Counted from the first letter of the stretch, positions 1 to 54,160 are shown. The stretch is 64,000 nucleotides of DNA from an uncultured Pseudomonadales bacterium (GCA_964521215.1 CAZFRD010000002.1:10798-74797), one strand, 5' to 3'. Program-made: numbers and translations. The notes: a model not told the origin generated them from the sequence alone.

Positions 1-971
1 ATCACCGGTTCCAAAATAGTCGTAAATTTGGCAAGACTTTTTGTGACTTCGTAGTCCATGTGGTCAGCGACCGATTGCATGGCGGTTTCTAGGGTGCCCG
101 TTTTTTCACCCACTTCCATTAGTTTGATCATCATTTCCGGTACAATCCGCTGTTTGCTCCGCAAGCCTTGAAAAAACGGGTAGCCAGAAACCGCCCGGTT
201 ACGTGCTTGCTTGATCAATGCCCTGACTTCAGACTTTCTCACAACTTCTTCTGCCAGTTCTAATGCCATGACGATCGGAATACCAGAAGACAAAAGTAAA
301 TATAAATTCCTGGTGAAGTGAGTCAAATCTGTTTTTCTGATTAATTGAGACACACCTGGCAAATCGTAAAGAAAATTGAATAACAACTCACGCTTGTAGC
401 GGTAAAACATCATCACTCCCACCACCACAGCCACTGAGACTCCAATGACAATAAACGGATGGTGAATCAAGGCATTGGAGAGCACTATCATCATTCGAGT
501 CGCAAAAGGTAAACTCACTTTCAACCGACTAAAAACTTGAGCAATTTTGGGGATCACCACCAGCAACATCACCACTAGAACAACCACAAATACTACCATG
601 ACTAAAGCTGGATACATCAAAGCAGATTTGACATTGTCTGCGAATTGCATTTCCTTCAACATGTTTTTTTCGATATCTTTGAGCGAAGTTTCCAAAGTAC
701 CTGACTCTTCAGCTGATTTGATGAGGTTGACTGTTACCTTATCAAAGGCACGAGGAAACTTAGAAAATGATTGATGCAAGTGATGACCCGAACTGATATC
801 TTCTTGAACAATTAGCAACACCTGCCTGGTATCTTTCTTCGATTCATCGAGCAGAGATTCTATCGTTTCCGCAATGGGAATACCGGCGGACAACATCGTT
901 GCCATATTGCTAAACAAGGATATTTTGTCGTCTGCAGACAAGCGGAGGTTTGCAGGATTGACCGTCTTCAT
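1..971 (-). CDS. pilC: Type IV pilus/T2SS platform protein PilC/GspF (5' part; C-terminus lies beyond window start)
   Basis: Reverse-strand translation from the ATG at 971-969 (MKTVNPANLRL...) gives a polytopic protein with the GspF/T2SS-F domain architecture. The start overlaps the pilB stop (TAATG). The ORF is absent from the track because it runs off the window. Confidence 0.75.
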   Translation of the reverse strand, partial: MKTVNPANLRLSADDKISLFSNMATMLSAGIPIAETIESLLDESKKDTRQVLLIVQEDISSGHHLHQSFSKFPRAFDKVTVNLIKSAEESGTLETSLKDIEKNMLKEMQFADNVKSALMYPALVMVVFVVVLVVMLLVVIPKIAQVFSRLKVSLPFATRMMIVLSNALIHHPFIVIGVSVAVVVGVMMFYRYKRELLFNFLYDLPGVSQLIRKTDLTHFTRNLYLLLSSGIPIVMALELAEEVVRKSEVRALIKQARNRAVSGYPFFQGLRSKQRIVPEMMIKLMEVGEKTGTLETAMQSVADHMDYEVTKSLAKFTTILEPV

Positions 972-2668
972 TATTTGATCTCTTCCGTGCGAGTCACACG
1001 TAGTATTTCTTCGATGGTGGTCATGCCCTGGATAATCTTCTGCAAGCCATCTTCAAACATGGTGGTCATACCTTCTTTGACAGCCTGAGCATGGATCACG
1101 TCAGAATCGGCTCGTTTGGTAACTAGGTCGCGAATTTCTTTAGAAATAGTCAGCACTTCGTAGATACCAATTCGACCTAGATAGCCAGTTTGGTGGCAAA
1201 ATCGACAACCTTTACCTTTATAAATGGAGATTTTGCCAGTTTTCACTCCCAAATTCTCTGGCAATTTTTCAATAAAAAGACGCTTGGTTAGTTCACTAGT
1301 CTCGATTTTTTCCTCTGCTTGGCAGTGAGCGCAAATTTTTCGCACCAATCTTTGGCCAATGATCACTCGCACTGTAGATGCTACCAAAAATGGTTCAACT
1401 TCCATATCAAATAATCTGGGAAGCGTGGTGGCTGCATTATTTGTGTGCAAGGTGGAGAGCACCAAGTGACCGGTCAGGGCAGCGTTGACAGCAATAGAAG
1501 CGGTTTCATTGTCACGGATTTCACCCACAAAGATCACGTCAGGATCTTGTCTGAGGAGCGAACGCAAACCAGCCGCAAAAGTTAAGTTGGTTTTAGGATT
1601 GACCTGCACCTGATTGGCTCCTGGCAATCGATACTCAATTGGATCTTCAATACTAGTAATGTTCCTCTCACGAGTGTTGACTAACTTCAAAATAGAATAC
1701 ATGGTAGTAGTTTTACCTGACCCAGTTGGACCAGTACTCAAGACCATGCCGTATGACTGGTTGTAGGCATTGGTAATCCGCTTGAGCGCCTCTTCGCTGA
1801 AACCCAAATCTTCGAGAGAGTAAGATCGAGCCTTAGAGGTGAGCAAACGCGCCACTACCTTTTCGCCTTCGGCAACTGGAATGATCGAAATGCGCAAGTC
1901 CAAGCGGTCGTCGTTGAGCATCATCGTCATTTTTCCGTCTTGAGCCGCTAAGTGCTGATCAGTCCGCAGTCGTGATAGGACCTTGATGCGGGTGACGACT
2001 CGGTCTAGTAAATACTTAGGCAAAGTAAAAATGTCATGCAACATACCATCAATCCGAAATCTGACTAAAAAGTCGTCTTCTCTCGGTTCAATATGAATAT
2101 CCGAAGCATTCTGCTCATGAGCGACCTCGATTAGTTGATCAACTAACTTCTTAACCGGCGGATCATGCACCGTGGTCCGAATAACAAAACTGTCATCATC
2201 ACGCAAAAATCGTTCAAAGTACTTTTGAAAATTGACTGTGTAATTTGTGAGTGCTTGATCAATAGAGGCGGAAGTAGTGTAGGCTAATTGAGCCGTTTTG
2301 CCATTTTTCTTTGCCAGCAATTGGACAAACAAGCGATTGGATTGCGGATCATCCGTAGCAATCCATAAACCTTCTTTGGGATCTTGACGATAACAGATGA
2401 CCCTGCGACGCTTGGCCACTTCTGGCGGAATCTGTTCTAGAGCCGACTGGTCTGTTTCTTTGTCGAGCAAATTAACAAATGGCACTTGAAAATACTTCGC
2501 CAAGATCTCGCCCAATGCCTCTGTAGTTAAAAGTTTCTCCTCCACCACTACACTGGCCAAGTCACGTTTGTTGCTTTTGGCTTCATCAACCCATTTGGTA
2601 AGTTCCTCAGCTTTAACCTTTCCTGATTGGACTAAGATCTGTTGGAGGGCGGCAGTGTCTAAACTCAT
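971..2668 (-). CDS. pilB: Type IV pilus assembly ATPase PilB/GspE family
   Basis: 565 aa with an N-terminal T2SSE_N-like domain, Walker A GPTGSGKTT, Asp/His boxes and a tetracysteine motif (CAHC...CRFC) typical of GspE/PilB. Confidence 0.9.
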   Translation of the reverse strand: MSLDTAALQQILVQSGKVKAEELTKWVDEAKSNKRDLASVVVEEKLLTTEALGEILAKYFQVPFVNLLDKETDQSALEQIPPEVAKRRRVICYRQDPKEGLWIATDDPQSNRLFVQLLAKKNGKTAQLAYTTSASIDQALTNYTVNFQKYFERFLRDDDSFVIRTTVHDPPVKKLVDQLIEVAHEQNASDIHIEPREDDFLVRFRIDGMLHDIFTLPKYLLDRVVTRIKVLSRLRTDQHLAAQDGKMTMMLNDDRLDLRISIIPVAEGEKVVARLLTSKARSYSLEDLGFSEEALKRITNAYNQSYGMVLSTGPTGSGKTTTMYSILKLVNTRERNITSIEDPIEYRLPGANQVQVNPKTNLTFAAGLRSLLRQDPDVIFVGEIRDNETASIAVNAALTGHLVLSTLHTNNAATTLPRLFDMEVEPFLVASTVRVIIGQRLVRKICAHCQAEEKIETSELTKRLFIEKLPENLGVKTGKISIYKGKGCRFCHQTGYLGRIGIYEVLTISKEIRDLVTKRADSDVIHAQAVKEGMTTMFEDGLQKIIQGMTTIEEILRVTRTEEIK

Positions 2669-2715
2669 GTTGTTCTATCATAGCCAGTCTGACCGCAGGT
2701 CACAACTGGCTCTTA

Positions 2716-5058
2716 CTACAGGTTGCTCCGTGATTGAATTTCACGCTCCACCTCATCTTTATCTCTTCCATATTTCAATCTGGATAGTTGTTTAATCATT
2801 TCTGCTTGCTTGGGGTTCATCCTGGCTTTGACTTTGTCCATATCTTTGGCCAATGACATGCTAAATGGCGGAACAGGTTCATTGCCAACAATCGTTTTCA
2901 TATAGACATGATATTTTTCAATGTTGGTGAGGTCGATTTCATTGAAAGTGGGAGCAAATTCATGTTGTAAAAAGTTAGCATCTGGCACACCTACCCGGAA
3001 GGAAACCATCGTACCAACGTTACCAAAGACGGCATTTTTTACATCTTCGTCAATCTGAGCCACAAACTGGTTGGCGACGATTAAATTCAGACGGTATTTT
3101 CTAGCTTCGGACAAAATGACGGCAAAATCTTCCGTGGCATAGTTCTGAAACTCATCAACATAAAGGTAAAAGTCATTACGTTTGTCCATCTCCATGTCTT
3201 GTCTACTCATCGCCGCTGTCAGTACTTTTGGTACTAAAATTAGGCCCAAAAATTTAGCGTCCTCTTCTCCCAAAATACCTTTGGACAAATTACATAAGAT
3301 GATTTTATTTTGATCCATCGCTTCACGGAAATTAAAGGCGCTGGTTGGTTGACCAATAATGTTACGCATAGTTTTGTTGGTCACAAATCGACCAAATTTT
3401 GACACAATATAGTCCAACACCTCAGATTTATGAAAGTCCGAAGTCTGAGCAATCTGATCTGTCCAGTACCGACGAACTACTGGATCTTTAACAATTGGTA
3501 ATAGTTCTTGCACGTATTTTTGATCGGTCAGCGCTCGGACTAATTCGATAAAAGTTGAGCCAGGCTTATACATAATCGTTAACATGGCGTTACGGATAGC
3601 ATGTTCAAAACGCGGACCAATGATGCCAGTTCGATGTGGATCATAAAGTTTGTACATCAAACCGATAATTGAACCAACCACAAAGTGACGTTGTTCTTCG
3701 GTGTCTGCTTCCATCATGTTCATGCCCATAGGCCGATCCAGATCGGACGGATTAAAATAGATCACATCATCGGCACGGTCGGGTGGCATGAGTTGCAAAA
3801 TATCTTCAACAAATTCACCGTGGGGATCAATGGCGCAGACTCCTTTGCCTGACTCAATATCCTGCAAGATCATTTCTTTGAGAAACTCAGATTTACCCGT
3901 ACCCGTCTTTCCCACGATGTACATGTGGCGTCGACGATCTTCATGACCGATATGCACTTTGCGAACTTCGCCCCGATAGTGCGATGCTCCCAGATACAAA
4001 CCAGTATTAGGAATTAAGTTGGGAGCTGGCGCATTTTTTGCATTGAGCCATTTAATATGATGTGTTTCCACAGTTTTATTTGGGAGGTGAAAGACAGTCG
4101 CAATTTCCTCAGTATTCAAAATGATTGAGTTGCGTCTGAGTAAAGGCATGTACCGATAAATAAAATCAATCATAAATAAATGTTTCAGAAAGACTCTACC
4201 CCGCTTAAAACTGTTGTAAGCAGATGAAAATTGAGAAAATGCGCCCACAATGTTATTGATATGCGATTCGGCGGTGGTTTCATTAGGCGAACTAACTACC
4301 ACCCGAATCGCCACTCTGAAACCAGGTTTTTCTATTTTGGAATTAATCGCTTCCATTTCTTTGGGATCGTGACCATAAGTGGCTTTTTCGGGATCGGCTT
4401 CGCGCTTTTTTTCTGACTGTACAAAACCTTTACCTTTTTTTTGCCAACCCTTGCCTTCTGGGGTGAGCAATATCTGGATCATTGCACCTTCGCCATCACC
4501 CATCTTTGACAGTGCCGAAGTGATCAGCGACAAACCGTCAGTTGGTAAATCTTTGTAAGTTTTGATCGGAAAATAGTTAGATTTTTCAAAACAAATTGCA
4601 GCGAAATCAACCTTACCTTTTTCACTAAAAATATTGACTTCTTCTACCTCTTTAATATCAGCGTTGGGATAAGCACCGTGGATTTGTTTTTCGACTAAGT
4701 CTCGTAACAAGGCTGGGCAACTGACGTAGATGGCGATATCTTCCTTCAAAGCCACAATTTCAAAAGCAAAAGAATGTTCTGGTTTTAACCAAGATAAAAA
4801 GCCCCGACGTTTGACAGAATATAATCCAGAAAACATTTGCTCTGCTGCGTCGATTTTGATTTCATTATCTTTTGGCAAACGGATCATGAGTGTCACAAAA
4901 TTGAGTGCGTAGGCTTCTCTTTTTCGGTGCTTCAACCATTGAAAAATCATGTAGGCAAAAACGGCCACGATGGCACCCACAAGCAACAACAGTGTCAGTT
5001 GGCTAAAAAATGTGACCAATATGTTGGTCAACTCAGAGATGTTAAATTTGGGATTCAT
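2716..5058 (-). CDS. VirD4/TraG/TrwB-like P-loop ATPase (FtsK/HerA superfamily) with one N-terminal TM helix
   Basis: 780 aa. An N-terminal hydrophobic helix is followed by HMYIVGKTGTGKSEFL...AIDPHGEF (TrwB/TraD-type Walker A) and Walker B YLYVDEFQNY...ANQ. Whether this is a VirD4-type or VirB4-type ATPase cannot be settled without a profile search. Confidence 0.5.
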   Translation of the reverse strand: MNPKFNISELTNILVTFFSQLTLLLLVGAIVAVFAYMIFQWLKHRKREAYALNFVTLMIRLPKDNEIKIDAAEQMFSGLYSVKRRGFLSWLKPEHSFAFEIVALKEDIAIYVSCPALLRDLVEKQIHGAYPNADIKEVEEVNIFSEKGKVDFAAICFEKSNYFPIKTYKDLPTDGLSLITSALSKMGDGEGAMIQILLTPEGKGWQKKGKGFVQSEKKREADPEKATYGHDPKEMEAINSKIEKPGFRVAIRVVVSSPNETTAESHINNIVGAFSQFSSAYNSFKRGRVFLKHLFMIDFIYRYMPLLRRNSIILNTEEIATVFHLPNKTVETHHIKWLNAKNAPAPNLIPNTGLYLGASHYRGEVRKVHIGHEDRRRHMYIVGKTGTGKSEFLKEMILQDIESGKGVCAIDPHGEFVEDILQLMPPDRADDVIYFNPSDLDRPMGMNMMEADTEEQRHFVVGSIIGLMYKLYDPHRTGIIGPRFEHAIRNAMLTIMYKPGSTFIELVRALTDQKYVQELLPIVKDPVVRRYWTDQIAQTSDFHKSEVLDYIVSKFGRFVTNKTMRNIIGQPTSAFNFREAMDQNKIILCNLSKGILGEEDAKFLGLILVPKVLTAAMSRQDMEMDKRNDFYLYVDEFQNYATEDFAVILSEARKYRLNLIVANQFVAQIDEDVKNAVFGNVGTMVSFRVGVPDANFLQHEFAPTFNEIDLTNIEKYHVYMKTIVGNEPVPPFSMSLAKDMDKVKARMNPKQAEMIKQLSRLKYGRDKDEVEREIQSRSNL

Positions 5059-5890
5059 GACGGTAGACTACTTTTCCTACAAATTTTTTAATAATTTTGT
5101 GACTCCATTCTAGCAACCAAGTGAAGCTGAGCTTTACATCTTTGACTGGATGCTGTTCATCTTCGGCAGTAATTGGCAAGACAATCACCGTTTGGGTGGG
5201 ATGCGATTGGGGCAAAGCCTGAACATTACCATCGGCTACGACCAGTTCCTGGGGTAGCTTATCGGCATGATCCTCTACTCGTTCCAAAAATCCTTCCACC
5301 TCAACGGGTAGCTCTGAAGCTGGCTCAAGTTCCACTTGGCCAATCAGCCCAGCTTCTGGTACGGCGCTATTGGAAGCGACCGTTTCCGGTTTGCGTGCGC
5401 CGGAGGGGTTTATCCCCTGAGGATTGAGGGGGTCATTGGCGATGATGGCGGCTGGCATAACCTGGTCAAAAACGCTGGAAGCTTGCTCGGCTTCGGTTAA
5501 CACTTGATCAAAAAGTGCCAGCCGCTCATCTTCAGTTAAATCAAAGTCTTGCGCTTGATCTTCATCAACCGCTAGCATTTGGGTAGCTGGCGTACCTGTT
5601 GCTGGCGTTGGAGTATAGGAATTGGTCGATGTTTGATTTTGACCACCGTCGTCTGATAGTTGAGATGAACTCACTAGATGAGGTTGATCGGTCAATTGGT
5701 CTAGTTGATCCGAAGGGGTTGCATTAATATGATCTGCTGAGTCTACAGAACTTTGATCAATTGTTGGATCATTTGCTGGATTAATAGCTGGATCAATTAC
5801 CGCAGGTTCAGTTACCATCGGCTGAGGAGGCATAGTTGTTGGCGGTGCAAAAGGATCAAATACCGCCTGTCCTGTCGGGGCAGTTATCAT
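5042..5890 (-). CDS. Pro/Gln/Asp-rich low-complexity protein of unknown function, first gene of the pilB operon
   Basis: 282-aa ORF, strongly acidic and Pro/Thr/Gln-rich with no TM segment. It overlaps the downstream ATPase gene by 17 nt, which suggests translational coupling. Confidence 0.4.
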   Translation of the reverse strand: MITAPTGQAVFDPFAPPTTMPPQPMVTEPAVIDPAINPANDPTIDQSSVDSADHINATPSDQLDQLTDQPHLVSSSQLSDDGGQNQTSTNSYTPTPATGTPATQMLAVDEDQAQDFDLTEDERLALFDQVLTEAEQASSVFDQVMPAAIIANDPLNPQGINPSGARKPETVASNSAVPEAGLIGQVELEPASELPVEVEGFLERVEDHADKLPQELVVADGNVQALPQSHPTQTVIVLPITAEDEQHPVKDVKLSFTWLLEWSHKIIKKFVGKVVYRHESQI

Positions 5891-5962: not shown

Positions 5963-6511
5963 TCAAAGCGTTGTTATCTCCAGTTTGTCTCCAACTTGCA
6001 GGTTGAAGTGCTGGGCTTGACCGGCTGGTATTTCCAGCACCAGAGTAACTGGCTGGGTAGGACTGTAGACTGGCAGGTCGGATAATGGCGTTTTTGGATC
6101 CGGCGCCGGTACATCAGTTGTAATATCAACTATTGTTGAACCGTCGATCCAAACAATATCCAAATCAAACAGCATCTCTTTCATCCAAAAACGCGGCACT
6201 GATCGCTCAGGCATCACAAAAAGCAAGCCGTCTTCTGACATTACCGATCGACCACTTAATCCTTGCTCAATCGCCCAATCGGAAACTACTACTTCGACGG
6301 TCAGTTCCCCCACTGGTTGCGCTTGACCATCCCGATTGACCGCCAACTGAACTAATTGGTAATCCTCTAGCTTCGCAGGTTGAGATGGTTTTCTAGATTG
6401 AAATGGTTTGGACCAAATAAAGATCAGTCCCAAACCAAACACAAACAATAATAGTAAAAACCACTTATTTTTCACTTTCTCATGATATACTGCTTTTTTG
6501 TGGTTGCCCAT
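5963..6511 (-). CDS. DUF192-family protein with N-terminal signal anchor
   Basis: 182 aa with an N-terminal hydrophobic segment. The motifs DIVWIDGSTIVDITTDVPAP and C-terminal VLEIPAG...GDKLEI match the DUF192/COG1430 pattern. Confidence 0.65.
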   Translation of the reverse strand: MGNHKKAVYHEKVKNKWFLLLLFVFGLGLIFIWSKPFQSRKPSQPAKLEDYQLVQLAVNRDGQAQPVGELTVEVVVSDWAIEQGLSGRSVMSEDGLLFVMPERSVPRFWMKEMLFDLDIVWIDGSTIVDITTDVPAPDPKTPLSDLPVYSPTQPVTLVLEIPAGQAQHFNLQVGDKLEITTL

Positions 6512-7475
6512 TTCTGCTATGCGAAAGTTCTCTATTTTTTACTATCTAGGCCTTGTGAGTTTAGTGACAATCTTTGGTGTAACTTTTATTAGCTTCTTTG
6601 GGTCAAGCCACTATTTTTTTGATCTGTTCGCTCACTTTCACCTGCAATATGCGATCGGTTGTCTGGTGTTGATGGGGTTTTTTCTGGTCCAGAAAAAACC
6701 CCTACTCGTCTTCACTGCCACCGTTGGTTTTATGATGCAATTTATCTTTCTACTGCCGTATTATTTTCAACCAACCGCCTCAGCTAACGATCAAGCCAAT
6801 GCTGAAACTATTCGCGTTTACTTTAATAATATCAATTACGGCACCACAGATTTTACTGCTTTAACCAAATCTATTGCTTACAATCATCCTCAAGTGGTTG
6901 GCATTGCCGAACTTTCAAGCGAAAAATTTGAACAGTTAGAAACTCAATTGCCGGATTATCCCTACAGCTTTCACGTTCCAGGCAGAAGTAAACTAGGGTT
7001 AGCAATTTTTTCTCAAATGCCCTTCGTCGACCAACCAAGTGTTCATTTCTTTTCTGACAGTCGCTTCCCCTCAATTGTTGCAGCCATCCAAGACTTTCAA
7101 ACAACCAAAAAACTTACAATTGTCGTTATTCACCCGCCTCCGCCTCTGCTCGCTGAATATACTCAGATCCGCAATGAGCTGTTTAATAATTTAGCTCAGT
7201 TTGCTCAAGACCAAACAGGTCCTCTTCTCGTCATGGGAGATTTTAATAGCACTAGCTGGTCACCAGCCTTTCAAACTTTGCTGGCCAACTCCACGCTGAT
7301 TGACTCTCGTAATAATCAGGGTATCCAACCATCTTGGCCTAGTCAGTTACCCAAGTTTCTAAGAATCCCGATTGATCACATGCTGACGAACGAGCTCTTA
7401 CCAGTCACCTACCGAGAAACGCTACCCTCAGTTGGTTCCGATCATCTGCCAATTTTAGCTGACTTTGCTTGGTAA
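6498..7475 (+). CDS. Membrane-anchored endonuclease/exonuclease/phosphatase (EEP) family protein
   Basis: 325 aa. The N-terminal ~100 aa contain several TM helices. The C-terminal domain has an EEP-like layout ending in GSDHLPILADF, the SDHxP catalytic His motif. Confidence 0.6.
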   Translation: MWLPISAMRKFSIFYYLGLVSLVTIFGVTFISFFGSSHYFFDLFAHFHLQYAIGCLVLMGFFLVQKKPLLVFTATVGFMMQFIFLLPYYFQPTASANDQANAETIRVYFNNINYGTTDFTALTKSIAYNHPQVVGIAELSSEKFEQLETQLPDYPYSFHVPGRSKLGLAIFSQMPFVDQPSVHFFSDSRFPSIVAAIQDFQTTKKLTIVVIHPPPPLLAEYTQIRNELFNNLAQFAQDQTGPLLVMGDFNSTSWSPAFQTLLANSTLIDSRNNQGIQPSWPSQLPKFLRIPIDHMLTNELLPVTYRETLPSVGSDHLPILADFAW

Positions 7476-8224
7476 TGTTTTCTTCCCAGTAGCGCCAGAC
7501 CAATAATTATTAATATGAGTAGCACATATTGGTTGAGACTCAAACCAATCCAGACGTTTTTTCCCCGATCAATGCGTAGAAAATCAAGTAGCAAGCGACC
7601 GAAGCCATAGAGCACTAAATACAATCCAGTTGATCCACCGGTTCCAAGCTGCCATTTGCTTCGCCAAATCCACAGCGTAATGACCAGATTAAGTAGCATT
7701 TCATACAAAAAAAGTGGATGAAAATGACTCTGAGATGCAACATTTCTCAATCGATGTTCAACATCGATGTAGATTCCCCAGGGTAGCTGTGTTGGCAATC
7801 CATACAGTTCTTGATTAACAAAATTACCTAACCGACCAATGATCTGACTAATTGGTAATGCGTGAACCACTAAGTCTGTGAGTAACAAAAAAGATAATTT
7901 GCCTTCGCTAGGCTTGGGTCTGCTTTGGAGCAATCTTAGTCCAATAGCAACCAGGCAGCCACCAATTATTCCACCAATAATACTCATCCCTCCCTGCCAA
8001 ACGTATAACAAGGCGATCGGATTTGGGGCATACAGATACCAGTCTGTCACCCCATGCCATAATCGGGCAAAAATAAACCCACCAACTAAAACTATCACAA
8101 TGTTGTTTTTGATTCTGTCAAAACTAATCTGGTATTTTTTACACGCAAGTCGTAAAAACTCCCACCCAGCTACTAAAGCAACGCCAATTATCAAACCATA
8201 GGGATGAAAAGTCAGACCAAACAT
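7442..8224 (-). CDS. lgt: Prolipoprotein diacylglyceryl transferase
   Basis: 260-aa polytopic protein carrying the Lgt signature GRLGNFVNQELYG. Confidence 0.85.
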   Translation of the reverse strand: MFGLTFHPYGLIIGVALVAGWEFLRLACKKYQISFDRIKNNIVIVLVGGFIFARLWHGVTDWYLYAPNPIALLYVWQGGMSIIGGIIGGCLVAIGLRLLQSRPKPSEGKLSFLLLTDLVVHALPISQIIGRLGNFVNQELYGLPTQLPWGIYIDVEHRLRNVASQSHFHPLFLYEMLLNLVITLWIWRSKWQLGTGGSTGLYLVLYGFGRLLLDFLRIDRGKNVWIGLSLNQYVLLILIIIGLALLGRKHYQAKSAKIGR

Positions 8225-16321: not shown

Positions 16322-17774
16322 TTAATCCCTCGATATTCCACATTGCATCGTAATGATTCCCTCCTTGAATAAGGGTAACGATGGTCTTCAAACCAGGAAA
16401 TAAACTAGCAGCTCTCCTTTCAAAAAATGATTGCGTGCGTTCAGAAATATGTTTAGTCCGAGAATCAGTTGGGTCTACAGTAGTAGCACCCACAACATAG
16501 ACCAAGCTAATTGGAACTTGGAAGTCTGTTAGTTTCTTTCTGACTTCTTTAGTAGTATCTTCTTTCAAAGCTGATGTGTTAGGAATCGCAAGAGACGTAT
16601 CGCCTTCAAGTCCAGACCTCCGCGCTTCGTTGACCATCCAAGCAGGATTTATTTTTAGGTAACCCATTGCCAATTGTGAAGGTAGTTTTAAGCCTGCTGG
16701 TCCCTCTGGTGTATCCCAAGAGTTCAACATTGCTCGAATCATATAGGCAAGAGATTGCGCACGAGAGATTTGCATATTCTCTGGTAATAAATTTCTTGCG
16801 TAGTTGTAAGGATCAGTAATTCCTTTTTGAGCTACTCGAAGATCAATATTAGGATTGCTACCAATTGCCGGTTCTAACAATATTAACTTAGGTTTGAAAC
16901 CCTTATCCAAAAAACGATCAGCCATCATGATTGCCTGATTAGCTCCAGCAGAAAAACCTGTCAAACAAATATTACTGGAGAGTTTCACACCTGCTTGCTC
17001 GAGTGCAGTCATCATAATATCAGCTGCGGGACCTAAGTCATTAGTCATCGCAGGATTGACTGGGTATCCGGTTTTCGTCGTACCTGACAAATGAGGCATC
17101 ACTATTACCCGTCGCACTTTTCCTTTTAATGCTTCGTTTTTGGCGAGAATATCACTGATTTGTGCCGCAAAACCTATATTGCTCAATGCATCGGTGGCGC
17201 CGCCACCAAATAAAATTAAGTCAATTCCTTCTCCAGCTTTTTCTTTCGATTGGTCAACGTCACCGCTATCTTTCAAACATGGAACTTCATGAATATAAAA
17301 TTTAACCACTGATGCTGCCGTTGGAGGTAAAAGATCAACATCTCTGTCCAACTTCTCTGCTAATTTTCCAGGGCGTTGGTTTGCTAACAAATCACTCACC
17401 TTAATAGTCGAAAAAACCACTTCAGTATGCTCTATACAAGAAAAAAACCGATCTTCGAATTTGAATCCCACCGAATCATTCAACTCGTTCCACGCCTTTT
17501 TTTTATTTGCAGCCAGTTGTTTTGATTCTTCCGACCGAAGCCGATCCAGTTTACCTGCTAATAAATTAAGAGGAATTGATAGTAGTCGCCTAATTCCGTT
17601 TTTTCGCTCTGGTGATTTTGAATCTACCTTGGACCTATCGGTCTCATACCTATCTAGGGGAACTTGCAATCCTCTGGGTTGCTGATGAATTGGTTCTGGT
17701 GGATCGGTCTCTTTTTTTAATCGTCTTTGCTCAAGATTACTTGCGTAGTCAATTTGAAGAGCCAATTCATTCAT
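16287..17774 (-). CDS. Alpha/beta-hydrolase fold protein with N-terminal extension
   Basis: GFSAG nucleophile elbow (GxSxG) and a C-terminal GGNHYD His region. The N-terminal ~170 aa are charged with no recognisable motif. Confidence 0.5.
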   Translation of the reverse strand: MNELALQIDYASNLEQRRLKKETDPPEPIHQQPRGLQVPLDRYETDRSKVDSKSPERKNGIRRLLSIPLNLLAGKLDRLRSEESKQLAANKKKAWNELNDSVGFKFEDRFFSCIEHTEVVFSTIKVSDLLANQRPGKLAEKLDRDVDLLPPTAASVVKFYIHEVPCLKDSGDVDQSKEKAGEGIDLILFGGGATDALSNIGFAAQISDILAKNEALKGKVRRVIVMPHLSGTTKTGYPVNPAMTNDLGPAADIMMTALEQAGVKLSSNICLTGFSAGANQAIMMADRFLDKGFKPKLILLEPAIGSNPNIDLRVAQKGITDPYNYARNLLPENMQISRAQSLAYMIRAMLNSWDTPEGPAGLKLPSQLAMGYLKINPAWMVNEARRSGLEGDTSLAIPNTSALKEDTTKEVRKKLTDFQVPISLVYVVGATTVDPTDSRTKHISERTQSFFERRAASLFPGLKTIVTLIQGGNHYDAMWNIEGLTNALKASLVGG

Positions 17775-19615
17775 GTTGTTTTTTTCCTTATTTGTTGGAT
17801 TTCAACCAAAGATGTGGCCTGATCCCAAGTTTTATCATCACGAATTTTGAGCAAGCGAGGAAAGCGCATAGCAAGACCTGCGCTGTGAACAGGAGATTCG
17901 GTCAGTTCGTCGGCGGCGACCTCGATGACTACGGCGGGCTCCAGCCAGACATCTGGCTGGAGCGACTTATCAACTTTGCCATACTCTGCTGGTTGAGTCG
18001 CCGCCTGATGATTATCTCCCAATTGTTTTAGTTCGCTCAGCTGATCTTCGCTCATCCCCGTTCCAATCTTACCAATCGTCACCACTTTGCCTGAGTCATC
18101 CAACACTCCAGTCAAAATCGCACCCAACCCAAATTGAGTCCGCTTACCCTTACCCTTGTAATAACCCATCATCACCACATCCAAAGTATCAGCCAATTTC
18201 CCGCGTGACCCTTCAGTCTCCTTAATCTTGACCCAACGCCAACCTTTGCGCCCTGATTGATACTGACTTTCAGTTTGTTTAATCACCGCTCCTTCAAGCC
18301 CATCCGCCAAAGCAGTTTCGTGAAACTGATGCACCACTGTTGGATCATTAGTTACCACAAACGGTGTGATAAAAAAACTGCCTCTACTATTTAACTGATT
18401 AGTTGGGCCAAAAATTGAAAATAAGTCGCTCAATATTTTTTTTCTTTCGTTGAGCGGTTGTGCAAGTAAGCTTGTTCCGTTCAATTCAATCACGTCAAAA
18501 ACATAAAATCTGATGGGCACAGCTTGGGCTTGATTTTCCACCTCGTGTTTACGTTTGCGGGTGATGGTTTCTTGAAAAACTTTTAATTTGCCAGTTTGCG
18601 GATCAAAACCAATTGCCTCACAATCCAAAATGCAGGATCGACAATTTATCTGCTCGCTTAAAGTCAACAATTCCGGGAACATGTGGGTACAATCTTCCAG
18701 ACTTCTGGTAAAAGCTCTGACTACCTTTGGTTGTGTTTCATTAGTTTGGTAAAGATGGATTTGTAACCTAAGACCATCATATTTTGGTTCAACAATCACC
18801 TCTCCCAACTTCTCAATTATTTCCTGAGCGGAATTTAGACGTTGGCATAAAGCTGGCATCACCGGAGTGCCAACTTTAACCGAATAGGAGTCGAGCACAT
18901 TGTGATAATTCGGCTTTGGTTGGCGACTTTCGGTAATCCAGACTGTGGCCAAATAACCCAAATCAGCACGCTTTTCCCAGGCTTTTTCCAGCTCACTGGT
19001 CCAATTTTTATCACCACTGACCAACCAGCTTAACGAATCTAAGATCGTCATGGTGGCAAAACCGAGGCGAAGTTTACCGATGACGATGCGCGCGATGTAT
19101 CGCGCGCTCAAACCATCATTCGATTTAAATAACTCAGCCAACCGATCAAGTTTTCGCTCCTGCGATCCTTCACCTCCCTCTTGAGCAATCAAGACCAAAG
19201 AGTTAAAAATAGAAATCAACTCAGATTCTGCTAGCGAATTAGCTCGACCTCCATTTTTCATTCGATCTTCAGTCACTTTTTCAGCCACCAAACCAACATC
19301 GCCCAACTCCTGGTACAACTGCTCAACTTTCCCTAACTCGCCAACATCCGACCGTTCGCCAAACAAATTAGTCGTTCCAGTATCTTGAGCATCCTCGTTA
19401 ATCCGACTGAGGGCTCGGAGCACCATTTTGCTACTCAAATTAAACTCCAAAGACTCGTACTGAGGCACTAATCTACCTTGCAACAAATAACAGGCTGGTT
19501 GAATTTCGGCTATTTCTAACTTTTTCAGTATCTCAACCAGTTGCTCGGTCATCGCCAAGCGGGAAGGAGTTGCTTCCAGTACTTTCAGATGCTGTGCAAA
19601 GTCAACAAATTTCAT
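17771..19615 (-). CDS. lig: ATP-dependent DNA ligase
   Basis: Motif I EPKYDGLRLQIH (KxDGxR adenylation lysine). The 614-aa length fits a ligase with its DNA-binding, adenylation and OB domains. Confidence 0.85.
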   Translation of the reverse strand: MKFVDFAQHLKVLEATPSRLAMTEQLVEILKKLEIAEIQPACYLLQGRLVPQYESLEFNLSSKMVLRALSRINEDAQDTGTTNLFGERSDVGELGKVEQLYQELGDVGLVAEKVTEDRMKNGGRANSLAESELISIFNSLVLIAQEGGEGSQERKLDRLAELFKSNDGLSARYIARIVIGKLRLGFATMTILDSLSWLVSGDKNWTSELEKAWEKRADLGYLATVWITESRQPKPNYHNVLDSYSVKVGTPVMPALCQRLNSAQEIIEKLGEVIVEPKYDGLRLQIHLYQTNETQPKVVRAFTRSLEDCTHMFPELLTLSEQINCRSCILDCEAIGFDPQTGKLKVFQETITRKRKHEVENQAQAVPIRFYVFDVIELNGTSLLAQPLNERKKILSDLFSIFGPTNQLNSRGSFFITPFVVTNDPTVVHQFHETALADGLEGAVIKQTESQYQSGRKGWRWVKIKETEGSRGKLADTLDVVMMGYYKGKGKRTQFGLGAILTGVLDDSGKVVTIGKIGTGMSEDQLSELKQLGDNHQAATQPAEYGKVDKSLQPDVWLEPAVVIEVAADELTESPVHSAGLAMRFPRLLKIRDDKTWDQATSLVEIQQIRKKTT

Positions 19616-44915: not shown

Positions 44916-47900
44916 ATGGCGGATGATTCCTCTGAAAAAACTATTAGCCAACCAAAGAGGTTGGTCTCCGGCTTTGCCCTTAATAACCTTGCTCACAGAC
45001 AGTGGCTGGCGGTTTTTTTGGCTGGACTGCAAGAGGCGCTATTTAAAGAAAACAAACTAGTAGAAAACCTCAAAATACCAGTTTGGTTTGGTTCTAAACC
45101 CTCGTGGGTCATCTTAACCACCACCGACGCAAAGAGAGATCTCGACGATCCCGCTCGAGACGAGAAGTCTTTATTTCCCACCGACATCGTTTACCTAATA
45201 GTCGATCTGGCCATAAGACTTGATGTTCCCCGCAAAGAGATTGAATATTATCTATCGAACGCCACTAGAGATGGGGACCTGTTCATAGAATCCACTGTTT
45301 TAGACACTCAAACTATCACTGAACTGAAAACACTTGTTGACGAAATCGGTAAGAAATTAGAGTTGGTAACAAAACAAGAGGACAAACAGAAAGAAGAGGA
45401 GGCTCCACCGACATTGGAAAAAGGTCCAGCTGAAGCTGTCAAACCTGTTGCCCCACCCCAAAAGGGGGTTACAACCGCAGGGGTTAAACCCACCCCAACC
45501 GAAGGTGGAGATCAAGCTGAAACACAAGTTGAACTACCCGGAGCAGTCGCGGCCTCGACAGTCATAAGCGCTCAAGCCGCCGCCCGAACCAAGAGATATG
45601 AGTTTGCCTGGATCTACAACCATTTTTTGTTCGACCTGACAGGCAAATATGGCATTGAGCCAAGTGATGAGTTGAGGGCACAACTCCAAGGAATTGTTTC
45701 AGAGCATCTGGGCACTATTTCTCCAGATGAAATGGCTAGTTTTTTTGCCAATCCCACTGCGCGTTTAAGAGCGATTCAAGCTATTTACCAAAAACTTAAC
45801 CTTCAAGATGACTTTAAGCAAAAGCTCAGTAATCAATATGACACTTACCTGCTAACTGCCACTGATTCACAAAAACAACAATTCCTACAAAGCAACAACT
45901 TCGCAAATGGCGGGTTGAAGATAATCGAAAACTTACAGAATTTTCAATTAGAAAATAATCAGTCGGGAGTGATCAAACAAGCCGAGACAACGCTGGCTGG
46001 TCTCACTGGTACGGCCATTGACGGCCCAACGGCTTTAAACTTTGAACGAGCCATCGAGGCATTAGCTCTCACTATGGGTTCCAAAACCGTGGCAACAGAC
46101 TTGGGACTGAGTTACCCAGAAAATAAGGCAGACCTGGAGACCTTCATTAAGAAGCTCAGCGCCAAACAGATAGCCCAGATCTTTTTCCCCAACCCCAATA
46201 AGCCAGATGAAGTAGATGACAAGATACTGTTAGCTATTGAGCAAAATCTTAGCTCAATTCAAAATCTACTTACCGCTACTCTGCTGGCAACTTCGCTGGA
46301 AAAACTAGCCACCGCACCGAATGAGTTAAAAAAACTTGTCGGCATAGCAGTCTTTACTGACGATGATCTTAAAGGCGACCAGACCGCAATCGAATCTGCA
46401 ATCGTCAGTGTGCGAACGCTTACCGGCGCGATGCCGGTTACTGGCAAAGACGACGACGTAACTCCTGCAATTACCACCAGCCACACCCAGCAGCTAATGG
46501 AACAATACCAAAAGCGGGTGCAAAAAATTTGGGCGTCTTTGGAAGAAGAGTCTCAACTGCGGGCTTACTACGCCCTATTTGGACTAACTGAGGATCCTGC
46601 CAACCACCAAGTTTTGTTGGATAAAGTCCAGCACCTTAGAATACCGGGTAGCAACAAATTACCCTGGAATCCTAATTTGATCAACTTGATCAATTGGGAA
46701 GATTTCTTAAGAAAAGATTACAAAGAAAACCAAAGGGTCGCGGCTCTTCGCGCCAAAGCCGCCGAGGGCTTTACCAAAAACCTCAGTCAGCTCCAACTTG
46801 AACAACTGCAAATCAGCCACTTACTTAACGAACTAGAAAACGGCGTGGTCTATGCCGAGGGCGTTGCTCACAAAATCAACCAAAACGAAGATATTGTTGA
46901 TCTTGAATTCCGCTCGGTACTAAACACACTAGACTTAGTCACCACTCGTTTGGACTTACTTAAAAGTCGAAAATTGGCTGAAGATGATGAAAAATTCAAT
47001 GTTGCATTAAACGAAAGAGTTGACAACCTTTCCGGTCGCTGTACGACAGTTTTATCCACCCTAGCTGGCTATAACCGCTTGGCGGGCCTACTGCAGAATT
47101 ATCAAAATCTCACCTTGGTTGAAACCTATCAACTATCGCTTGAGTACGAAATTCCCGAAATTTTACTCTACCAAGTTGGGGATATTACTCAACCGGGTTT
47201 TAATCAGCAAGCTGAGTTGTCCGACAGAGTCACAGCCGATAACTTACTTGATGACCCTTCCTCAATGTCGCTCGGCCAACTCAATGCTGCTGCGAGAAAG
47301 AGCAACGAGCTACATCCTAGTCGACTCGATCAAATTAACCTTGCCAACCAAAACAATCAGGCGCTTAATGATCTAAAAAACATAGTTGGTGGAGTGGGAG
47401 AAATAGCTGCTCAGTCAAAAGGCAACTGGGTAGCTGCGGCCGGTCTGGGTATTAAGAAATACCTCACCGACAAGGAATTTCGCCAAAGCATCAACCGGAC
47501 AGCTAAAAGATACGCAAAAAAAATAGCCTTGTTAGGTGGAATTGTTGTTGGAGGTGGAGTAGCAATCGGATTGCTTCTTAGACATTTGCTAGGAATGGCT
47601 GGACAGTGGGGCGGGATGCTTGGAGGAGCGTTGGCTGGCGGCACCGTTGGAGCGGCACTTGGACCACTTGGAGTAATATTGGGAGCGGGAATTGGGGGAT
47701 ATTTAGGATATAACGTTGGAGCCAAAGCCGCCGCCCTCAATGCTTCATCTGGGGCGGAATTGCTATCACCCAGTAGTTCAGCCGCCCAACCGATTTTCCA
47801 AGAAGAAGTCCTTTCGTCCTCACCCGCCACTTTTCAATCTGCCACTAGTGGCACTGGCATGGAAGCTACCACCCCAGCTGCCGCCACAGCTTCCCCCGTT

Positions 47901-49046
47901 GCTTCTTCTGCCGCCACCTCCGTTGCCACCCAAGCTCCTTTTCTTGGCAGTCTGGCTGGCATCCCAGTCTTAGCCTTAATCCCCGCCCTATCAATGCTGT
48001 CGCTGGCTGGGATCACGCTTTACACTTTGTTTGTAATTTTTTCCGCTTTCCTCGCCCCTCTACCCGTGGGCAACCTCGGTGGTGTCAACACCACTAAATC
48101 TGAATATGCGGTGCTGACAAAACTGGCATCACCGGGGTCACTATCAAACAACACGACCGCCAACGTCAACTACAAAATTATCTTGCAACCTAGAAGGAAT
48201 TATTCGCTCAAAGTAACCGCTGTGACCGATAGCGCCAACACTGGCTTCAACTTTCAATCTAATCGCTCAGGCAAAATTAATCCCCAAGTTTCACCACCCG
48301 CCAGCTTGCTCAATCCTCGTATTTCTTTGGCAGACTTTTCTCCCGATTTTTTTGGTCAGACCCAACTAAAAGAATATAGTGTCACCTTCTCTGGGGGCAA
48401 GGACGTGCTGGTTAGTAACGTGATAAAAATTACCTACGATGTCCAGGATGCTCAAGGCAATTCCATTGCCACTAACCAAACGATTGACGCCATCGCCAAT
48501 GTGTCCATTGGCGACCATGGCGTATTTTGCTGGCCCACAACGGGAGAAATAATCCAGTTGCCAGGGGGCAGTTTTTCACACAATAACTCTGACGCATTTG
48601 ATATTTCAGCTCCAAAAACCAACAAGGTCTACACCCCATTTGCTGGCTGGGCTCAAAAGGGCGATATGGGTAATAGTGATTATGGCAAATACGTAGTAGT
48701 TGACTCATATGTGCAAGGAAGGTGGATCAGAATTATTTACGCTCACTTAAGTAGCGCTGCGGTGGGTACTCCCACAGCCCACACGTGGCTTAATATAGCC
48801 TACAACCATGACGACAACCAAGCGAACAACATTGGTCAACAAGTTGGCGCTGGTCAACTAATTGGCGCAGTCGGCTCCACTGGCAACTCTACAGGACCAC
48901 ACCTTCATTATGAGCTCATATATATTAACGGCAGAAGACATACTTTCGGAAGTGGATTCAGCCTTATTAACTTAGTGCCTCCAAGACCTGCGGGGGGCAA
49001 ATACAGAGTAGGAGATTATGTTAAAACCTGTTATCCATTTAATTAA
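44916..49046 (+). CDS. Giant bitopic protein with C-terminal peptidase M23 (LytM) domain; PrgK/VirB1-like peptidoglycan hydrolase candidate
   Basis: 1376 aa. The first ~870 aa are helical and soluble. Two Gly-rich hydrophobic segments follow (IALLGGIVVGGGVAIGLLL...GALAGGTVGAALGPLGVILGAGIGGYLGY), then an Ala/Ser/Thr-rich linker. The C-terminus carries the M23 motifs (GDHGVF..., AVGSTGNSTGPHLHYELI). A TATAAT lies 7 nt before the ATG. Confidence 0.75.
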   Translation: MADDSSEKTISQPKRLVSGFALNNLAHRQWLAVFLAGLQEALFKENKLVENLKIPVWFGSKPSWVILTTTDAKRDLDDPARDEKSLFPTDIVYLIVDLAIRLDVPRKEIEYYLSNATRDGDLFIESTVLDTQTITELKTLVDEIGKKLELVTKQEDKQKEEEAPPTLEKGPAEAVKPVAPPQKGVTTAGVKPTPTEGGDQAETQVELPGAVAASTVISAQAAARTKRYEFAWIYNHFLFDLTGKYGIEPSDELRAQLQGIVSEHLGTISPDEMASFFANPTARLRAIQAIYQKLNLQDDFKQKLSNQYDTYLLTATDSQKQQFLQSNNFANGGLKIIENLQNFQLENNQSGVIKQAETTLAGLTGTAIDGPTALNFERAIEALALTMGSKTVATDLGLSYPENKADLETFIKKLSAKQIAQIFFPNPNKPDEVDDKILLAIEQNLSSIQNLLTATLLATSLEKLATAPNELKKLVGIAVFTDDDLKGDQTAIESAIVSVRTLTGAMPVTGKDDDVTPAITTSHTQQLMEQYQKRVQKIWASLEEESQLRAYYALFGLTEDPANHQVLLDKVQHLRIPGSNKLPWNPNLINLINWEDFLRKDYKENQRVAALRAKAAEGFTKNLSQLQLEQLQISHLLNELENGVVYAEGVAHKINQNEDIVDLEFRSVLNTLDLVTTRLDLLKSRKLAEDDEKFNVALNERVDNLSGRCTTVLSTLAGYNRLAGLLQNYQNLTLVETYQLSLEYEIPEILLYQVGDITQPGFNQQAELSDRVTADNLLDDPSSMSLGQLNAAARKSNELHPSRLDQINLANQNNQALNDLKNIVGGVGEIAAQSKGNWVAAAGLGIKKYLTDKEFRQSINRTAKRYAKKIALLGGIVVGGGVAIGLLLRHLLGMAGQWGGMLGGALAGGTVGAALGPLGVILGAGIGGYLGYNVGAKAAALNASSGAELLSPSSSAAQPIFQEEVLSSSPATFQSATSGTGMEATTPAAATASPVASSAATSVATQAPFLGSLAGIPVLALIPALSMLSLAGITLYTLFVIFSAFLAPLPVGNLGGVNTTKSEYAVLTKLASPGSLSNNTTANVNYKIILQPRRNYSLKVTAVTDSANTGFNFQSNRSGKINPQVSPPASLLNPRISLADFSPDFFGQTQLKEYSVTFSGGKDVLVSNVIKITYDVQDAQGNSIATNQTIDAIANVSIGDHGVFCWPTTGEIIQLPGGSFSHNNSDAFDISAPKTNKVYTPFAGWAQKGDMGNSDYGKYVVVDSYVQGRWIRIIYAHLSSAAVGTPTAHTWLNIAYNHDDNQANNIGQQVGAGQLIGAVGSTGNSTGPHLHYELIYINGRRHTFGSGFSLINLVPPRPAGGKYRVGDYVKTCYPFN

Positions 49047-49998
49047 CCAGCGCTCAAAAAAATCTTGGGTATTCTCTATCCTGCTTTTACTCGTGATGAT
49101 GGGCGTGGTGTTTACCCTCCTCACACCCAGCCAACAACCAACATCTGACCAAAATAAAAATTACGATGACACCTACTCAAGCTTTTCCAATGTCGGCTAC
49201 GTTGGGGGCACTTTGGTCATACCCGAAAATCTACCAGTGTACCAACAAGCAACTTGGGAAGATCCATTGCTACTCAAAAACCAATTTGTTGCCCAGTTCA
49301 ACCTGGCGGGTGATCCCGAAGATCCCACGCTTTGGCAAAACGAAAATTTGACGATCACGCAAATAGATGAGCCAACTCGCTATGTTTTGGAATATCTGCC
49401 AGACGAAGAGGAAGCAAGCAACCCAGCTCAAGTTCAACCCGCTAGTTACCCCGATCCCACCCAAATTGCCAACAGTTGGATTAATCAACATTTCACCACT
49501 TATTCACTCACGGCCGTAAGTTCGGAAGTTGAGTATCTAACCGGCGAGTATGAACTGGTAAAAACATCTAAATCGCTCACCACTTTGGTCAAAATTCCCT
49601 ACGCCCAAACTGCGGGCAACTACCCAGTCCAAACCGAATTAACCGATAGTTACCCGCTAATTCTTTGGGTCGACACACAGAAAAACTTGGTTAAAAAAGT
49701 AGTTTTTTACCCCACCTTGGTAACTTTCAAATCAGGAGAGGAACTGCCCACTATTAGTGTGGATGAGGCGGTAAAAAACATTAACTCGGAAAAGGAAGCG
49801 CGCATCATCAAATCTGATTTTACGCCCATTGAACCATATTCACTCGAACAAATTAAAAGTGGCAACCTAACCAGTGGCAAAATCGTTTACCGAGTGGCTT
49901 CCAACCAGTTGTTAAAACCCTTTTACTTCTTTAAAGGCAATTTAACCGACAGCAACAACATCGGATTTGAAGCTGAGATTGTGGTTCCCGCTATCTAA
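49018..49998 (+). CDS. Bitopic membrane protein (N-terminal signal anchor plus about 280-aa extracytoplasmic domain); VirB8/TcpC-like candidate by position
   Basis: RSKKSWVFSILLLLVMMGVVFTLLT anchor followed by a soluble domain. It sits between the hydrolase and the PrgI-like gene, as ConB/TcpC-type genes do in monoderm T4SS loci. This is a positional inference only. Confidence 0.35.
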   Translation: MLKPVIHLINQRSKKSWVFSILLLLVMMGVVFTLLTPSQQPTSDQNKNYDDTYSSFSNVGYVGGTLVIPENLPVYQQATWEDPLLLKNQFVAQFNLAGDPEDPTLWQNENLTITQIDEPTRYVLEYLPDEEEASNPAQVQPASYPDPTQIANSWINQHFTTYSLTAVSSEVEYLTGEYELVKTSKSLTTLVKIPYAQTAGNYPVQTELTDSYPLILWVDTQKNLVKKVVFYPTLVTFKSGEELPTISVDEAVKNINSEKEARIIKSDFTPIEPYSLEQIKSGNLTSGKIVYRVASNQLLKPFYFFKGNLTDSNNIGFEAEIVVPAI

Positions 49999-50052
49999 GC
50001 CTTCTCTGCTTGGGGTGTCTGCTGTTACAATCACATAGACCCACTGCCCACT

Positions 50053-51255: not shown

Positions 51256-51306
51256 ACTCTACCCATTTTCTAAGTACCCTTGGTTATAGTATGCTAGCAT
51301 AGCCAA

Positions 51307-52179: not shown

Positions 52180-52180
52180 T

Positions 52181-54079: not shown

Positions 54080-54160
54080 GGCTATTTATCAGTGTATTTT
54101 TCCCCTTGCAGAGTGTGGGAAACTTTGTGTATAACTTCCAAGTATATTTGGGGTGGAAAT

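Follow-up and report, generated by a model that had tools for sequence, protein, structure and literature searches.

An orphan VirD4-like ATPase of the Patescibacteria beside an apparently inserted type IV pilus cassette

When the gene of a coupling protein-like ATPase stands in one tight row with the motor genes of a type IV pilus (T4P), do the products form one machine? This question is raised by the left end of a 64,000-nt stretch of DNA from an uncultured Pseudomonadales bacterium (GCA_964521215.1 CAZFRD010000002.1:10798-74797; hereafter the window), where four collinear minus-strand genes encode a 282-aa protein (P282), a 780-aa P-loop ATPase resembling TrwB and VirD4, PilB and PilC. An initial annotation had described the ATPase as embedded in a T4P operon and suggested a hybrid of a T4P and a type IV secretion system (T4SS). 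Our listing of open reading frames (ORFs) reproduced the four genes and their overlapping or closely spaced junctions (P282 and the ATPase gene overlap by 17 nt, the ATPase gene and pilB are 47 nt apart, and pilB and pilC overlap by 1 nt, as TAATG), and the G+C content was flat over the region (0.43–0.445). The described gene layout was thus confirmed, except that it omitted the DUF192 gene, which lies upstream on the same strand and belongs to the conserved unit. The answer to the question itself is negative: the ATPase is an ordinary member of a known, already counted and uncharacterised family of orphan VirD4-like proteins in Patescibacteria, and its adjacency to the pilus genes is fortuitous, the outcome of a local rearrangement and not a sign of a hybrid machine.

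Conservation of the ATPase-pilus adjacency

We compared gene order at 80 genome loci (L001–L080) whose ATPases were 67–96% identical to that of the window, placing the window's proteins by tblastn. PilB followed the ATPase at one locus only (L001; ATPase 96% identical), and none of the 59 ATPase loci whose downstream sequence exceeded 3 kb carried pilB. The picture of an ATPase embedded in a T4P operon was not supported. Downstream of the ATPase, these 59 loci had a convergent gene of ~124 aa (56 loci) and genes for MacB/FtsX (50), an ABC ATPase (46) and an HlyD-like protein (45). In the further loci L087 and L088 (ATPase 89% and 94% identical, respectively) the order was lgt, DUF192, P282, ATPase, pilB, pilC and six more genes, four of them with pilin-type N-termini, after which came the usual convergent small gene and the MacB/ABC genes. 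The T4P cassette therefore appears, in the closest relatives, as an insertion between the ATPase and its usual flanking genes: eight genes in a block of ~8 kb, occupying a spot that is intergenic everywhere else. In the window pilC runs off the left end, and the genes beyond it are deduced from L087 and L088; a search beyond that end gave only contigs of 5.4 kb and 1.6 kb with an identical P282.

Viewed from the pilus side, the adjacency was equally restricted. An ATPase upstream of pilB was found only where PilB was at least 82% identical to that of the window, and in none of 14 loci where PilB was 40–55% identical and the upstream flank measured 5 kb or more. The arrangement is thus limited to a narrow clade with ATPases at least 89% identical to the window's. 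In another locus, L092, the eight-gene cassette was present in unchanged order without the ATPase, adjoining divergent YbeY-like and RpoD-like genes (both assigned from translations by eye, not by profile). In papers on the T4P of Saccharibacteria, no gene of the VirD4-like or DUF87 kind is described from the pil loci. Read most parsimoniously, these gene orders reflect one event in a narrow clade, by which an autonomous T4P cassette was inserted or relocated. Since the pilus genes look like a recent insertion beside a widely conserved, secretion-type ATPase cassette of ultrasmall bacteria, no hybrid machine is indicated. Within the cassette we noted a further irregularity: in L090, the ATPase and PilB were 96% and 92% identical to those of the window, whereas from pilC on the sequence shared 97% identity with L087 but no more than 77% with the window. 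This switch suggests recombination within the pilus block between related strains. More generally, the cassette looks mosaic when L090 and L091 are set against L087, L089 and the window.

The imperfect palindrome that had been placed between the ATPase stop and the pilB start was located exactly where annotated. Folded as RNA it forms a hairpin of −18.5 kcal/mol (z = −4.1 against shuffled sequences), and it sits within the 47-nt spacer, at the junction made by the T4P insertion. Similar hairpins with different inner stems were found in L001 and L088 (−19.7 and −16.8 kcal/mol, z ∼ −4); L087, where ATPase and pilB are separated by 8 nt, had none. We regard the hairpin as real and semi-conserved. 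It is not a canonical terminator, because it lacks a U-tract, and we rejected an old terminator of the ATPase operon as its origin (no U-tract, not called by the terminator scan, absent in L087). In 78 loci we folded the first 80 nt beyond the ATPase stop codon (median minimum free energy −11.2 kcal/mol); a comparable conserved hairpin was absent from all 45 of these spacers that were inspected. The hairpin might serve in processing or stabilising the transcript, cause partial termination, or act as an operator. In a promoter scan the number of sites did not rise above shuffled expectation (20 found, 17 expected), and Rfam had no match anywhere in the window.

Architecture and affinities of the ATPase

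The hallmarks named by the initial annotation, GKTGTGKS (Walker A, residues 383–390), DEFQNY (Walker B, residues 635–640) and a single N-terminal transmembrane (TM) helix, were all found. In an alignment of 30 family sequences both Walker motifs fell in invariant columns, with G383, G386, G388, K389, D635, E636, R653, K654, Q664 and Q668 invariant. The P-loop motor is catalytically intact. Kyte–Doolittle analysis gave one hydrophobic segment only, peaking at residues 21–39 and followed by KHRKRE. Because of the positive-inside rule, this combination predicts an N-out/C-in protein with the remainder in the cytoplasm. The TM helix lies ∼340 residues from Walker A. The annotation had called this long region atypical, and rightly so, as it holds a folded DUF8128 domain resembling the N-terminal domain (NTD) of VirB4 (below).

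The initial annotation had also proposed profile searches, and these supported its assignment to the TrwB/VirD4-like ATPases: around the P-loop, TrwB_AAD_bind scored 32 bits against a Pfam threshold of 20.5, and DUF87 33 bits against 23.2, the DUF87 match being limited to residues 375–439, whereas the HerA and FtsK models did not pass. TraG-D_C fell slightly under its Pfam threshold. PF26449 (DUF8128) was not reported in our Pfam scan of the window ATPase; it is precomputed on an identical 780-aa gene in another locus (L133). More divergent family members matched TrwB_AAD_bind over positions 8–318 of 387, and also T4SS-DNA_transf and TraG-D_C. A hidden Markov model (HMM) profile of the family, searched against the PDB, gave its best matches to TrwB (1.2e-6) and DotL (8e-6) among relatives of solved structure, and a weak one to HerA; neither VirB4 nor FtsK was among the matches. 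Two blocks are covered by the HMM alignment to TrwB, that of Walker A and DE...ARK...Q...Q. In NCBIfam, weak matches to TraD, the CD1115 VirD4-like family, TrbC and CedD were all far below their cut-offs. Profiles of the VirB4 type did not match the ATPase (AAA_10, E = 0.041, 13 bits against 27.5; VirB4_plasma, 23.5 against 590), nor did CagE_TrbE_VirB and P-loop_TraG, and neither the ATPase nor P282 matched T2SSE or other pil profiles in Pfam and NCBIfam.

Two other families were considered and rejected. The FtsK/SpoIIIE profile PF01580 reached 17.7 bits (threshold 24) over 22 P-loop residues only, the ATPase has one TM helix, and no FtsK chain was retrieved from the PDB; for HerA, helicase_HerA scored 15.9 against 970, and the N-terminal domain matches VirB4, not HerA. 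In PADLOC the ATPase matched mad8 (2.7e-16 over residues 374–675, a similarity of the ATPase domain) and, weakly, HerA; partner genes of such a system were not present, P282 and the DUF192 protein matched nothing there, and the neighbourhood is conserved housekeeping. A defence role of the MADS or HerA type seems unlikely. We also noted a faint T4SS_pilin match at the N-terminal TM region (N-terminus of P0123).

The AlphaFold2 model of the full-length ATPase (predicted local distance difference test (pLDDT) score 87.5) has a long helix at residues 7–52. In Foldseek, the full model aligned with TrwB over ∼415 columns (template-modelling score TMt 0.62, root mean square deviation ∼5 Å), and its best E-values were to TrwK/VirB4 (4e-15), collinear over 830–869 columns. 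The N-domain modelled alone (residues 45–365, pLDDT 87.7) had TrwK/VirB4 as all of its top 14 PDB matches (E 8e-7 to 9e-5, TMq 0.39–0.50), followed by unrelated folds with E > 1e-3. From the collinearity of the full-length alignment we infer that the N-domain most probably matches the VirB4 NTD. Eight helices at residues 454–582, between strands 432–435 and 586–590, form an insertion that would be equivalent to the all-alpha domain of type IV coupling proteins (T4CPs). The ATPase thus consists of a TM anchor, a DUF8128 domain that resembles the VirB4 NTD, and a motor whose sequence is T4CP-like. In the literature searched we found no description of the VirB4-like nature of DUF8128 or of the P282 partner, which is not proof of novelty.

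This architecture touches several known systems. TrwB of R388, VirD4, DotL and Cagβ share the motor fold, Walker A and B, the ARK...Q...Q pattern, the helical insertion and an N-terminal anchor with the window ATPase, which differs from them in having one TM helix, an extra VirB4-NTD-like domain of ∼300 aa and no linkage to a relaxase or T4SS. VirB4 (TrwK of R388) has a like two-domain fold of NTD and ATPase, but the window protein lacks VirB4 profiles and its motor sequence is nearer to T4CPs. CedD of Sulfolobales combines a TM helix, a VirB4-NTD-like domain and a HerA/VirB4-type ATPase in cells that need T4P for DNA exchange (PMC11868833); it is archaeal, however, and resembles the window ATPase only at the level of the P-loop (30.4 bits against a cut-off of 600), so that by score it is not a relative. 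A search of the window's neighbourhood identified no equivalents of CedA or CedB.

The family is large. By word-index search the ATPase had more than 6,600 homologues, and the 120 that were listed were full-length, 76–95% identical and all carried precomputed PF26449, PF10412 and PF01935. Their named sources were mostly Woesebacteria, Pacebacteria and Patescibacteria, and a few labels of metagenome-assembled genomes such as 'Pseudomonadales' look like mislabelled Patescibacteria bins. Exhaustive HMMER searching gave 22,317 clusters at 50% identity with E < 1e-3, of which 5,714 had E < 1e-30. A published survey counted 5,713 VirD4-like T4CP homologues in 2,918 Patescibacteria genomes, just 148 of them near virB4 (PMC12102498). 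Compared with these orphan homologues, which are chromosomal, distant from virB4, without a nearby relaxase and represented by 76–100% identical proteins with the same three Pfam domains, nothing essential differs in the window; its sole peculiarity is the T4P cassette downstream.

Conserved neighbours, secretion locus and plasmid relatives

Over the 80 loci, the unit that is conserved is lgt-DUF192-P282-ATPase (Table 1), with DUF192 upstream on the same strand in 67 of 80 and Lgt in 45 of 80 by tblastn. P282 and ATPase are a median of ∼6 nt apart, nearly all distances falling between −29 and +127 nt; the exceptions are two outliers due to ORF calling and one distance of +194 nt. As annotated, P282 is proline-rich and acidic (29 Pro, 44 acidic and 12 basic residues). 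It has no TM segment. Its N-terminus is variable, Pro-rich, very acidic and disordered, and the charges are unevenly spread (38 acidic and 5 basic among the first 242 residues, 6 acidic and 7 basic among the last 40). Only a C-terminal module of ∼100–130 aa is conserved, ending in a basic amphipathic helix (...VLPIT...FSIRWLVEWS.KI.KMF.GKVIYR). P282 matched nothing in Pfam, NCBIfam or PADLOC, and 59 of 59 homologues are labelled 'hypothetical'. When the surroundings of six ATPase relatives at 36–47% identity were searched with an HMM of the module, there was no match (best E = 0.13), which makes P282 specific to this subgroup. Around these six relatives we found housekeeping and envelope genes (YkuD, SpoIID, SmpB, gyrase, tRNA synthetases) and small unknown ORFs, and no pil or virB4 genes.

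Some features of the neighbourhood vary. The Exo_endo_phos (EEP) gene that lies on the opposite strand between lgt and DUF192 was seen in only L001 and L003 of the 80 loci, and also in L088. The neighbourhood thus has a second insertion that is lineage-specific, and where this gene starts it overlaps the start region of DUF192. In the relative L081 (47% identity), a gene for T4SS_pilin (PF18895) was seen 7 kb upstream, at 576–986; together with the faint match of the TM region, it may hint that some lineages have a link to pilin-like proteins of the T4SS. A DNA ligase of the ATP-dependent type (N, M and C domains of DNA_ligase_A) is encoded in the window and also ∼8 kb upstream of the cassette in L087, which implies that the wider neighbourhood is syntenic in close relatives.

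The window also encodes a monoderm-type T4SS, 47 kb from the ATPase. The locus comprises a 1376-aa protein with a C-terminal Peptidase_M23 domain, ORFs of 326, 400 and 290 aa, and a 632-aa VirB4-like ATPase, and it encodes no coupling protein. Its VirB4-like ATPase and the 780-aa ATPase share only P-loop similarity, and tblastn found no second copy of the latter in the 64 kb.

Relatives of the ATPase also occur on plasmids. Proteins of Bacillaceae plasmids share both of its domains (hhalign probability 100, E = 2.7e-51, 662 columns); N-domain and motor are collinear with those of the window protein, although identity is only ∼26%. With the N-domain as query, tblastn gave matches with E down to 6e-18, on haloarchaeal plasmids too; in the Bacillaceae proteins the N-domain is 26–30% identical. 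On NZ_CP032854.1, an 886-aa relative heads a module that also encodes TcpE, a replication-relaxation protein, proteins of conjugal transfer and, as a distinct gene product, an ATP-binding protein of 848 aa. CP120602.1 encodes a 913-aa relative and an origin-spanning ORF that we tentatively read as VirB4-like (Walker A at ∼residue 510); its BLASTP comparison to the window VirB4 was negative. The Bacillaceae proteins thus stand at the coupling-protein position, heading conjugation modules with a VirB4-sized ATPase of their own, whereas the gene of the candidate phyla radiation (CPR) stands in a housekeeping setting with P282 and DUF192. As the closest plasmid system we considered and rejected pLS20, whose T4CP differs (gene 48, 786 aa, two TM helices); the matching plasmids carry Tcp-like modules. 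Most plasmids with ATPase relatives are classed by MOB-suite as 'non-mobilizable' (309 of 362, and 41 of 41 of those matched by the N-domain). Mobility may be under-called for some of these, which have Tcp-like conjugation modules and a replication-relaxation protein.

Table 1. Positions of the features discussed, in coordinates of the window
Feature	Position	Strand	Basis or remark
pilC, 5′ part (T4P platform protein)	1-971	-	orthologues in L087/L088 with PF00482 T2SSF; second gene of the T4P cassette
pilB (T4P assembly ATPase), 565 aa	971-2668	-	T2SSE 2e-126, MshEN 7.5e-9, TIGR02538 8e-156; first gene of the T4P cassette
Hairpin in the ATPase-pilB spacer	2682-2711	-	RNA folding
DUF8128 + T4CP-like ATPase, 780 aa, membrane-anchored	2716-5058	-	Pfam, NCBIfam, PDB profiles, AlphaFold2, Foldseek
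ATPase, T4CP-type motor domain, residues ~366-735	2854-3963	-	alignment, HMM, Foldseek
ATPase, Walker B	3139-3156	-	DEFQNY
ATPase, Walker A	3889-3912	-	GKTGTGKS
ATPase, DUF8128 N-terminal domain, residues ~53-350, alpha/beta repeats	4009-4902	-	domain model and Foldseek
ATPase, single N-terminal TM helix, residues ~17-42	4933-5010	-	Kyte-Doolittle; model helix 7-52
P282, 282 aa	5042-5890	-	homologue directly upstream of the ATPase in 77/80 loci
P282, conserved C-terminal module	~5045-5443	-
DUF192 (COG1430) protein, N-terminal hydrophobic anchor	5963-6511	-	PF02643 4e-21
Exo_endo_phos (EEP) gene	6498-7475	+	PF03372 annotated on L087/L088 orthologues
lgt (prolipoprotein diacylglyceryl transferase)	7442-8224	-	PF01790 annotated on L087/L088 orthologues
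ATP-dependent DNA ligase	17771-19615	-	DNA_ligase_A domains
ORF, 1274 aa	33156-36980	+	no Pfam match at E <= 1e-5
ORF, 1070 aa	39881-43093	-	no Pfam match at E <= 1e-5
T4SS locus	44916-54079	+	monoderm-type; adjoins dnaA (54092-55627)
T4SS locus, 400-aa ORF	50053-51255		PrgI (VirB3-like family) 1e-6, CarboxypepD_reg domains
T4SS locus, VirB4-like ATPase	52181-54079		P-loop_TraG 4e-25, AAA_10 1e-14

Possible roles of the ATPase

What, then, might the ATPase do? We propose that the 780-aa gene encodes a vertically inherited, DUF8128-family translocase ATPase of the VirD4/TrwB type, which by analogy with TrwB and VirB4 may act as a membrane-docked oligomeric ring. The real genetic unit would be DUF192-P282-ATPase, next to lgt, in which P282, being translationally coupled, most likely binds the ATPase as adaptor, regulator or substrate. 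The ATPase itself would most likely serve as substrate receptor and energiser of the monoderm-type T4SS 47 kb away, and the T4P adjacency would yield at most read-through co-transcription, modulated by the junction hairpin. Such read-through from the ATPase gene into pilB is possible in this lineage. As a whole, a chromosomal T4CP-like DUF8128 ATPase of Patescibacteria that came to lie beside T4P genes by local insertion, and that likely serves the distant T4SS, is the explanation we consider probable. On the coupling step taken separately we are roughly evenly divided between a role in the T4SS and one independent of it, because the Southlakia homologue is non-essential and exaptation has been raised (PMC12102498).

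Several observations weigh against parts of this proposal. The full-length T4CP models stay under their NCBIfam cut-offs (SXT_TraD, 41.8 against 366; CD1115, 35 against 250; TOL_TraD, 25.8 against 648; F-type TraD, 14.9 against 521), and the ATPase has one TM helix where T4CPs usually have a pair, with ∼300 aa of DUF8128 separating it from the nucleotide-binding domain. Among the flanking genes identified within 8 kb at the 80 loci, and likewise around the six distant relatives, there was no relaxase or T4SS component. In Southlakia the T4CP homologue is dispensable for epibiotic growth while T4SS genes are essential (PMC12102498). Strong conservation and stable chromosomal synteny are atypical of a conjugation protein, and a housekeeping role fits them equally well or better. 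Lastly, the gap of only 8 nt in L087 means that ATPase and pilB may well be co-transcribed in this clade.

The conservation is among the grounds for a different explanation, which we regard as possible but on balance unlikely: that the ATPase has been exapted as a T4SS-independent core membrane translocase, acting only with P282 and perhaps with envelope genes and DUF192. It might then handle DNA at the membrane in division or uptake, or export a cell-surface component. Over the 80 loci, each from a different species, the ATPase was 67–96% identical, whereas its neighbours Lgt, DUF192 and P282 were 29–66% identical (mostly 30–55%), an unusually slow rate for a relative of conjugation ATPases. 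The chromosomal synteny with lgt, DUF192 and MacB/ABC genes is fixed, distant relatives stand amid housekeeping and envelope genes, and the small share of homologues near virB4 (148 of 5,713) comes from the same survey in which the idea was raised (PMC12102498). However, Bacillus plasmid proteins of like architecture lie inside conjugation modules, the genome does encode a VirB4/PrgI T4SS, T4CP genes are often far from virB4, so that linkage is not obligatory (PMC12102498), and no result points to a specific alternative substrate.

That the 780-aa protein is a divergent second VirB4, docking on the inner-membrane complex of the T4SS, seems to us improbable. Its structure would suit such a role, as the best Foldseek E-values are to TrwK/VirB4 with ∼850 collinear columns, the N-domain alone matches only VirB4, and the N-terminal TM helix could replace VirB3. 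Yet the VirB4-type sequence profiles fail, the family profile retrieves TrwB and DotL, not VirB4, from the PDB, the genome already has a typical VirB4 that shares only the P-loop, and the Bacillus plasmid modules carry both proteins. We give similarly little credence to a broader conjecture, in which the DUF8128 ATPases would be a core CPR translocase derived from a monoderm coupling protein that kept or gained a VirB4-type N-domain, working with P282 and independently of conjugation, for example in a Ced-like import of host DNA or nucleotides together with T4P; the operon fusion would then be a genuine link.

Least probable of all is direct cooperation with the T4P, for instance as a Ced-like DNA-import motor for which the pilus provides contact or uptake and which would make the operon fusion meaningful: the genes do share a strand and tight gaps (47 nt in the window, 8 nt in L087), archaeal DNA import depends on CedD, which has a TM helix, a VirB4-NTD-like domain and an ATPase and acts side by side with type IV pili of the Ups kind (PMC11868833), and there is a weak CedD match at the P-loop (1.6e-7), but the linkage is confined to one clade with ATPases at least 89% identical, is missing from 59 of 59 ATPase loci and 14 of 14 pilB loci elsewhere, the cassette is complete and autonomous in L092, CedD scores 30 bits against a cut-off of 600, and papers on Saccharibacteria T4P loci list no such ATPase.

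The layout of the window thus reveals no new machine; it presents a further copy of the orphan VirD4-like ATPase beside locally inserted pilus genes. It is the family that is of interest. It occurs in most Patescibacteria genomes surveyed in PMC12102498 and is far more conserved than its neighbours, it joins a VirB4-like N-domain to a VirD4-like motor, and its constant partner in this group is a small acidic protein. Deciding whether these ATPases feed a T4SS or have been exapted would help to explain how CPR bacteria with reduced genomes exchange material between symbiont and host.

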